This document shows positions 41,763-41,876 of a stretch of DNA of 64,000 nucleotides, piece by piece. The stretch lies in assembly GCA_016181175.1 (NCBI GenBank), contig JACOZV010000001.1, positions 182,185-246,184 of the forward strand, read 5' to 3'. Each line of letters opens with the position of its first letter. Within the stretch, counting starts at the first letter, position 1. Origin of the DNA: Candidatus Yanofskybacteria bacterium. GTDB lineage: Bacteria > Patescibacteriota > Minisyncoccia > 2-02-FULL-40-12 > IGHO2-01-FULL-4-A. A program made the translations under genes and the position numbers. The notes below the pieces were generated by a model. That model did no database searches and had not been told where the DNA came from. It saw nothing but the letters and a program-made list of their open reading frames with translations.

Positions 41763-41876
41763 CCCGAACGAAGTAGCCCTGGCGGGCTAAACGAACGGGA
41801 ATATCAAATACAAAATAACAGTAGTTCTGCGCCTGTAACTTATATTTATAGCTGCGCAGCAGCTACTTCGTACGGG
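41763..41876. repeat. 114-nt element with family-2 termini, exactly filling the wzm-wzt gap
   Basis: It begins 'cccgaacgaagtagc' and ends 'gctacttcgtacggg', the same terminal motif with one mismatch at the same position as family 2. The interior differs and contains its own ctgcgc...gcgcag palindrome. Confidence 0.55.

Follow-up and report, generated by a model that had tools for sequence, protein, structure and literature searches.

The wzm and wzt genes of this Candidatus Yanofskybacteria genome are separated by 114 nt that begin and end in an inverted repeat and have no stop codon in the wzt frame, raising the question of whether this DNA encodes part of Wzt, acts as an RNA element of the operon or arrived as a piece of mobile DNA. 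The reading we favour, at a probability of roughly three in four, is that a non-autonomous member of a Patescibacteria family of hairpin-ended repeats has inserted at the start codon of wzt. The evidence comes from the junction itself, from the same junction in relatives, from dispersed copies in the window (the whole 64-kb stretch of DNA that was analysed) and in metagenomes, and from longer units with the same ends that carry a nuclease gene.

The wzm-wzt junction

The locus has the following features, all on the + strand.

40904-41761, +: wzm, ABC-2 permease (Pfam ABC2_membrane, E = 2.6e-17), stop codon TAA at 41759-41761
41757-41762, +: 5' flank TCTAAT, the site where family members have a duplicated ATGAAT; only AAT is left here
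41763-41876, +: non-autonomous hairpin element of 114 nt (MITE-like)
41763-41777, +: 5' terminal arm CCCGAACGAAGTAGC, 15 nt
41763-41799, +: 5' sub-hairpin CCCGAACGAAGTAGCCC-TGGC-GGGCTAAACGAACGGG, an alternative partner for the 5' arm
41827-41859, +: internal hairpin CTGCGC…GCGCAG, directly 5' of the 3' arm, with palindrome halves at 41827-41832 and 41854-41859
41862-41876, +: 3' terminal arm GCTACTTCGTACGGG, 15 nt
41877-41881, +: ATGAA, serving both as start codon of wzt and as the 3' copy of the duplicated target
41877-43145, +: wzt, ABC ATPase of 422 aa (Pfam ABC_tran, weak Wzt_C match; homologue lengths)

An earlier note, made from the sequence of this stretch, had described a 114-nt spacer that exactly fills the gap from the wzm stop to the wzt ATG, and the coordinates confirm this. 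The wzm stop, which follows a C-terminus (...ADIV*) that is kept in relatives, abuts the element with a single T at 41762 that probably belongs to it. The two terminal arms are complementary save for one A·A mismatch at arm position 5. As the note had also claimed, these are the termini of a 48-nt family found elsewhere in the window, with CCCGAAYGA…TCGTACGGG ends and the mismatch common to both, and the interior has its own ctgcgc/gcgcag palindrome at the positions listed above; a homologous region to this internal hairpin is present in our alignment of homologues (A6). The 5' sub-hairpin finishes with a second ...ACGGG copy of the terminus, then AAT, a layout also seen at L018 1370-1394, L013 and L001. 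Chance is excluded as the origin of the terminus pattern and of the palindromes: the window holds three matches to the pattern where 0.09 are expected, and eight palindromes with 15-nt arms, the 114-nt element among them, compared to 0.55 in shuffled sequence. As RNA, the element is predicted to fold at -43.4 kcal/mol (z = -3.8), with a stem that begins at the last base of the stop codon.

A six-frame check found the element open in the wzt frame only, and it is because of this open frame that the ORF list starts wzt at 41670, as had been proposed. Taken at face value, the frame would give Wzt an N-terminal extension (predicted peptide NPERSSPGGLNEREY…), a reading that we regard as effectively refuted. 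Among the best 120 Wzt homologues, lengths are 403-458 aa, none covers more than 87% of the 491-aa long ORF, and an N-terminal extension matching the element is absent from all 120. The top homologue, from Candidatus Yanofskybacteria, has 89% identity. In the long ORF the ABC_tran domain starts at residue 125, the normal offset from the ATG at 41877, and that ORF would overlap wzm by 92 nt. These results support the earlier placement of the Wzt start at MNSPIIEIKN, and the conserved extension that had been named as the observation to tell against it was looked for and not found. The idea that the open frame through the element is meaningful did not hold up. Lengths of 112, 113, 114, 115, 116, 118 and 119 nt are all common in the family, which has no 3-nt periodicity, so that an open frame is ruled out as a family property and here appears incidental.

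To examine the junction in relatives, syntenic wzm-wzt loci were retrieved for close Wzt homologues. Four relatives whose Wzt is 80-89% identical (L002, L003, L004 and L005) have only a 3-nt spacer, TAA-NNN-ATG (TAA-ACT-ATG in L002 and L003, TAA-TTT-ATG in L005), and the 114 nt are therefore an insertion. In these relatives wzt begins 3 nt past the wzm stop and lacks an obvious ribosome-binding site. In L001, the closest relative, the spacer is 30 nt long, TAATCCCGAGCTTCCATCTTTTAATTCATG, and looks like a decayed relic of the same insertion because it retains the 5' junction TAATCCCGA. The L001 spacer (9968-10003) also keeps AATTCA from the wzt start of the window, suggesting that most of the copy was deleted and that the start codon formed anew.

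Short copies of the family

The earlier note had suggested alignment with other copies, and genuine homologues of the 114-nt element came from a scan of groundwater metagenomes with the pattern CCCGWACGAA-N80-110-TTCGTACGGGAT, which covers one terminus type. At least 131 elements of 100-124 nt with the same termini were found on at least 120 contigs. Thirteen full-length homologues are 71-89% identical to the window element and lie in 13 different gene contexts in a single orientation; the metagenome copies may include related populations, and the flanks of the 13 all differ. RNAalifold on the homologue alignment indicated that the 15-bp outer stem is kept through double changes (GC→AU and UA→CG). 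Across the wider family the inverted termini follow (T/C)CCCG…CGGG over 12-16 bp with co-varying arms, and only the termini, not the interior, are held in common. We tried to extend the likeness to the interior of a 123-nt element of L001 and rejected it, the two having only a short ACGGGAAT(T)ATCA motif in common.

The flanks identify the target. In 12 of the 13 homologues the 5' flank is ATG[AG]AT and the 3' flank is ATG[AG]A, the window copy (TCTAAT) being the exception, and among the 131 elements the flanks co-vary as pairs (ATGAAT/ATGAAN in 55, ATGGAT/ATGGAN in 18 and ATGTAT/ATGTAT in 3). A permutation test restricted to elements with a 3' flank other than ATGAA gave 12 with at least five of six flank bases matching versus 2.2 expected. 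The 3' ATG opens a long ORF in 98 of 116 cases, compared to 21% for random ATGs; the duplicated ATGAA or ATGGA is the start codon of a gene in almost all copies, and the elements have one fixed direction relative to that downstream gene. The target duplication of the family is 5 bp, with the consensus ATGRA. In the window copy only two of five bases match between the flanks (TCTAA versus ATGAA). Loss of the upstream ATGAA may be explained by a small deletion across 8 nt of microhomology, and because that duplicate has gone, the window copy is probably no longer mobile.

Elements of 107-123 nt at five loci (L001 1930-2052, L018 1370-1476, L013 900-1010, L030 1767-1884 and L064 35-153) have one layout, in which the 5' arm is followed by an AT-rich stretch, a GC hairpin, CCTG and the 3' arm, and all lie before start codons. 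The 5' arm is sometimes followed by a short complete hairpin ending …ACGGG and AAT, and at L001 1930-2052 the stop codon TAG of the upstream gene lies inside the 5' arm. Tandem arrays occur at L018 1364-1766, L030 1485-1890 and L125 1228-1484, with elements separated by ATGAAT only, as expected if each insertion regenerates its target.

The window itself holds sister elements.

14453-14500, +: 48-nt element, in-frame 18-codon insertion in a PMT_2/TPR membrane protein, ATTTAT on both flanks
58520-58567, +: 48-nt element, in-frame 18-codon insertion (DPERGREGTQRASASYGV), flanks ATTGAC and GTTGAT
13186-13254, +: 69-nt element of a second terminus type (CCCGTTAGAGGT…ACCTCTAACGGG) at a gene start, ATGGAT on both flanks
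16936-17004, +: 69-nt element within the GT39 gene (15833-17422), in the reading frame of the gene

Together with a palindrome at 12346-12440, these make up the hairpins with TCCCG…CGGGA ends in the window, and three of them lie in frame within long ORFs. Both 48-nt copies are clean 18-codon insertions relative to homologues, and illustrate how membrane proteins gain peptide segments from elements of this kind; the two are read in different frames, giving IPNETARARSVPLSRTGF at 14453-14500 and the peptide listed above at 58520-58567. For the copies within genes, we considered a 'byps'-like translational bypass and splicing as a mini-intron, and rejected both. Read-through translation is indicated, because the copies amount to a net 18 or 25 codons and have no stops in the host frame.

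Several further observations concern these copies and other repeats in the window. At 13186-13254 the duplicated ATGGAT places an in-frame ATG upstream, from which the N-terminus may be extended by 25 aa. The product of the GT39 gene is 100% identical to the protein P0121, and the source is a Yanofskybacteria MAG. The GT39 element is found at the same codon position, with ~90% DNA identity, in homologues that are 58-62% identical in protein (L006 11129-11254 and L008 2777-2902), whereas closer homologues (75-81%) lack it and have a different segment of ~16 residues; the net difference is +7 aa and not +25, with ~16 native residues replaced. Simple transposition does not account for this pattern of presence in distant and absence from near homologues, and repeated site-specific insertion or gene conversion is possible. 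The 12346-12440 hairpin is a 95-nt composite palindrome of a third terminus type (TCCCGATTTGTCC…GGACAAATCGGGA), located 3' of a 1200-aa surface-protein gene and 5' of a terminator-like hairpin at 12479-12508; a nuclease unit at L036 has CCCGATAG…CTATCGGG ends. The window also has a 153-nt direct repeat (22224-22376 and 22401-22553, 73% identity) and GTTACTAGTTACC-type repeats in both orientations at three places (28018-28105, 34646-34733 and 59859-59898).

Units that carry a GIY-YIG nuclease

In a relative, the junction orthologous to the one occupied by the 69-nt element at 13186 holds a 278-nt unit (L009 7082-7359), whose termini, CCCGTTAGAGCC…GGCTCTAACGGG, surround an 88-aa GIY-YIG ORF (PF01541) with a TGA stop that overlaps the ATG of the next gene. 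Full-length members of the family are ~278 bp and share this design: the last codons of the nuclease (…L/R-T-G) are the 3' arm, and its TGA overlaps the host ATG (GGG ATG A). The 3' arm encodes the nuclease C-terminus, …RFLxLTG, which hardly varies, and translation of the 5' arm from an upstream ATG yields some of the annotated N-termini (MNPVR…). The element explains over-extended 'MNPVR…' nuclease ORFs elsewhere just as it accounts for the 115-nt gap and the over-long wzt ORF in this MAG.

Homologues of the 88-aa nuclease number 1647 at E < 1e-5, mostly from Patescibacteria and many on very short contigs. The proteins are single-domain (PF01541 only, 86-95 aa), with Y6, Y17 and E64 invariant in our alignment (A5). 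A scan of species-representative genomes (GTDB) yielded at least 549 nuclease loci in Patescibacteria and other phyla. Among the best 80 loci, ~70 are a 270-280-nt unit bounded by CCCGTTAGAG…CTCTAACGGG with arms that co-vary (GAGCC/GGCTC, GAGAC/GTCTC, GAGAT/ATCTC and ATAGTGTCAG/CTGACACTAT). Overlap between the nuclease stop and the start codon that follows it occurs in 56 of 73 units; of 59 downstream start codons, 50 open a long ORF. The upstream copy of the ATG is kept in 38 units, in 22 of which it is in frame with the nuclease.

Within the 64-kb window, tblastn found no GIY-YIG gene. The unit with the terminus type of the 114-nt and 48-nt elements, CCCG(A/T)ACGA…TCGTACGGG, is found in the closest relative, where the second nuclease copy, P0283 (L018), has termini CCCGTACGAACC…GGTTCGTACGGG and hence the same CCCGTACGAA…TTCGTACGGG ends. 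Read in frame +1, the 3' arm of the 114-nt element gives ...LLRTG*, compared to …FLVRTG* at the C-terminus of P0283. Genes of the P0283 type are present on seven metagenome contigs bearing short elements, and their end, TTCCTATTTCGTACGGGATGA, is that of the 3' ends of the short elements. The GIY-YIG unit is accordingly a probable autonomous partner, judged from these shared ends. By sequence the nearest relatives of the nuclease, among solved structures and among plasmid genes, are UPF0213/YazA (PDB 1zg2 at E = 5e-14; ~40% identity to the B. subtilis yazA type), and it is not demonstrably an Ssn enzyme (cd10448).

Two further observations bear on the units. At L016 1486-1835 the nuclease gene is interrupted in frame by a 66-nt hairpin element with flanks GTGGAT and ATGGAT, and such an insertion explains the nuclease homologues of 110-119 aa. 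A unit variant with CCCCGTTAGAG…CTCTAACGGGG ends is found at L027, L031, L046, L055, L057-L060, L068, L069 and L085, in MAGs labelled Planctomycetes, Syntrophales, Omnitrophota, Thermodesulfobacteriota and delta proteobacterium, and in Candidatus Niyogibacteria (L060). These hosts are mostly not Patescibacteria, and the flanking repeats are of the TTGAC / TTTAC type and not ATGAA, a pattern suggestive of horizontal transfer and of another target preference. GIY-YIG proteins appear in one study's list of genes transferred from Patescibacteria to other bacteria (PMC12455944).

Mobility, alternatives and known systems

The empty sites, the dispersed copies with target duplications and the gene-bearing units with the same termini support the MITE-like family, with conserved termini and a variable interior, that the earlier note had proposed. 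As to how copies would move, we lean towards a model in which the termini, folded into a hairpin or cruciform in DNA that is single-stranded or extruded, are recognised by the nuclease, which would supply the cuts that move both full-length and short copies. The proposal is made by analogy with Ssn nucleases and the structure-selective SLX1/UPF0213 relatives, and it is directly testable with the 278-bp unit.

The nuclease could instead be a passenger, or a homing endonuclease that came to reside within the hairpin, with the element, MITE- or REP-like, moved by another enzyme (a RAYT/IS200-type HUH enzyme, a DDE transposase or host recombination). GIY-YIG enzymes hydrolyse DNA and are not known for strand-transfer activity, and free-standing GIY-YIG homing endonuclease genes exist; both points fit such a passenger, as does a weak, sub-threshold NCBIfam match of the nuclease to a group I intron endonuclease. 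That one junction holds a 69-nt element in one genome and a nuclease unit in another would fit exchange by recombination. We nevertheless consider this explanation unlikely. No transposase was seen adjoining any of the ~200 element-bearing loci, and the C-terminal codons of the nuclease are the 3' arm, changing together with the 5' arm by subfamily (…ALTG with TTAGAG, …VRTG with TACGAA), while nuclease subtype and short-element terminus subtype co-occur on contigs. An arm of the 114-nt element does contain GTAG, the REP tag, but here it is base-paired within the stem, leaving no unpaired 5' tag, and the other terminus types lack it.

The element could also be a dedicated cis-acting RNA of the wzm-wzt operon (a coupler, an attenuator, a processing site or a small RNA) and not selfish DNA. 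Its fold, strong on both strands (z = -3.8 and -4.1), and the partial sequestration of the start codon in the stem are in keeping with this, and RNase III cuts Correia elements in their inverted repeats (PMC10969869). Against a dedicated RNA, the element is absent from orthologous wzm-wzt junctions and is not conserved specifically at wzm-wzt across lineages, homologous copies precede many unrelated genes, and the termini alone, not the interior, are common to the wider family. Rfam returned no match to the element at the gathering score and only chance-level matches at relaxed thresholds. Nor did a promoter and terminator scan find a promoter-like or terminator-like site within 41763-41876; an intrinsic terminator would be a GC-rich hairpin with a T-run behind it, and here the 3' arm is followed by ATGAATTC. 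We therefore regard a dedicated RNA as highly improbable, although an exapted effect of the element on wzt expression is possible.

For the inserted, non-autonomous copy that we favour, the geometry of the stem may explain how the insertion is tolerated. In the predicted fold the wzm stop and the wzt ATG would lie at the base of the stem, with A41761 and T41762 paired to A41877 and T41878. On terminating at the wzm stop, a ribosome would unwind the 5' arm and free a wzt ATG that is otherwise partly sequestered, and translational coupling from wzm to wzt would thereby be kept despite the insertion. From this modelled geometry, coupling or an mRNA processing site is plausible; that the insertion is tolerated at wzm|wzt for this reason is a tentative suggestion, to which we give rather less than even odds.

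More broadly, the 114-nt element and its relatives may represent the non-autonomous and autonomous forms of an unrecognised class of prokaryotic transposon, driven by a single-domain GIY-YIG enzyme of ~90 aa (Ssn/UPF0213-like) that recognises its own folded termini, a class that homes to start codons (ATGRA) and minimises harm, a reading that falls just short of an even chance. If it is correct, harm would be limited by duplication of the start codon and by a stop that overlaps that codon, host gene expression would continue by translational coupling, and hairpin derivatives would seed in-frame peptide insertions in proteins. Start-codon targeting combined with stop/start overlap is an unusual route of persistence for selfish DNA in a genome with almost no intergenic space. 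The analysis in any case exposes an abundant repeat family of Patescibacteria; the literature that we searched held no description of these elements, of their start-codon target or of their short derivatives.

Compared to known systems, the 114-nt element resembles MITEs in being short and non-coding, with inverted termini, dispersed copies, empty sites and, in the L018 unit and the P0283-type genes on contigs with short elements, an autonomous element with the same ends; the exceptions are the degenerate target duplication of the window copy and a partner that is not a known transposase. Correia/NEMIS MITEs are likewise short and non-coding with terminal inverted repeats, a target duplication, many gene-adjoining copies, co-transcribed hairpins and an autonomous partner with the same ends (PMC10969869). 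They differ in that their partner is a DDE transposase and not a GIY-YIG nuclease, and their target is TA, whereas here the target is ATGRA at start codons and orientation to the host gene is fixed. REP/RAYT and IS200-IS605 systems likewise have hairpin repeats, which a small dedicated enzyme is believed to move as single-stranded DNA and which flank the gene for that enzyme (PMC3733652). Here there is no HUH/Y1 transposase and no unpaired GTAG tag, and target duplications are present, of which IS200/IS605 make none. A REP/RAYT identity was considered and rejected, since GTAG lies in the stem and is absent from sister terminus types and no HUH gene was found at the loci examined.

Rickettsia palindromic elements (RPEs) are similar as palindromic repeats that survive as in-frame insertions in the genes of a reduced genome and for which no transposase is known (PMC10969869, PMC3733652). 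Compared by description, they are ~100-150 bp and CGTC-tagged, unlike the 114-nt copy, which is intergenic; the in-frame position of RPEs is seen here in the sister 48-nt copies. The UPF0213/YazA/YhbQ proteins, related to SLX1, are the closest relatives of the nuclease by sequence. Their function is uncharacterised and, unlike the nuclease here, they are not known with inverted termini or repeats; UPF0213/YazA are described as SLX1-related structure-selective enzymes (PMC9071465).

The closest known system is Ssn/SRM, in which a GIY-YIG enzyme of ~94 aa binds hairpin repeats on single-stranded DNA and cuts just upstream of them (PMC11893778). The ssn gene is flanked by its hairpin repeats, and Chenal et al. 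2025 hypothesised that NTS-ssnA-NTS is IS-like (PMC11893778). Both systems have a single-domain GIY-YIG protein of ~90 aa with the Tyr6, Tyr17 and Glu64 positions conserved, Y6, Y17 and E64 being the residue numbers mutated in N. meningitidis SsnA (PMC11893778). In both, a repeat able to form a hairpin lies on either side of the gene and is scattered elsewhere in numerous copies, its core is TCCCG…CGGGA, and variants of the nuclease change together with variants of the repeat; the genera rich in SRM include Rickettsia (PMC11893778). The Patescibacteria elements differ in that a single long palindrome has the gene in its loop and its two halves as the flanks, as opposed to two complete hairpins of 20-50 nt around the gene. 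They also lack the CGTC tag, make clear 5-bp target duplications at start codons, have short copies of 45-124 nt with interiors, are hosted by Patescibacteria and encode a nuclease nearest UPF0213/YazA by sequence. The published SRM motif, HGTCWYN(0-2)YYVSBRHN(0-5)WNVSBRGN(0-2)RNCYNB, as a regular expression that does recover NTS, had no match in the window and none in the 80 nuclease loci.

Here, co-varying termini, target duplications and empty sites tie hairpin repeats to a candidate enzyme. For Ssn/NTS a link of this kind had been a hypothesis only (PMC11893778), and Di Nocera et al., who found no dedicated transposase for CGTC-type repeats or RPEs, declared it missing in both (PMC3733652). 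If the family is indeed an unrecognised class of transposon, its nuclease would be the kind of mobilising enzyme long sought for 'orphan' palindromic repeats such as RPEs and CGTC-REPs.
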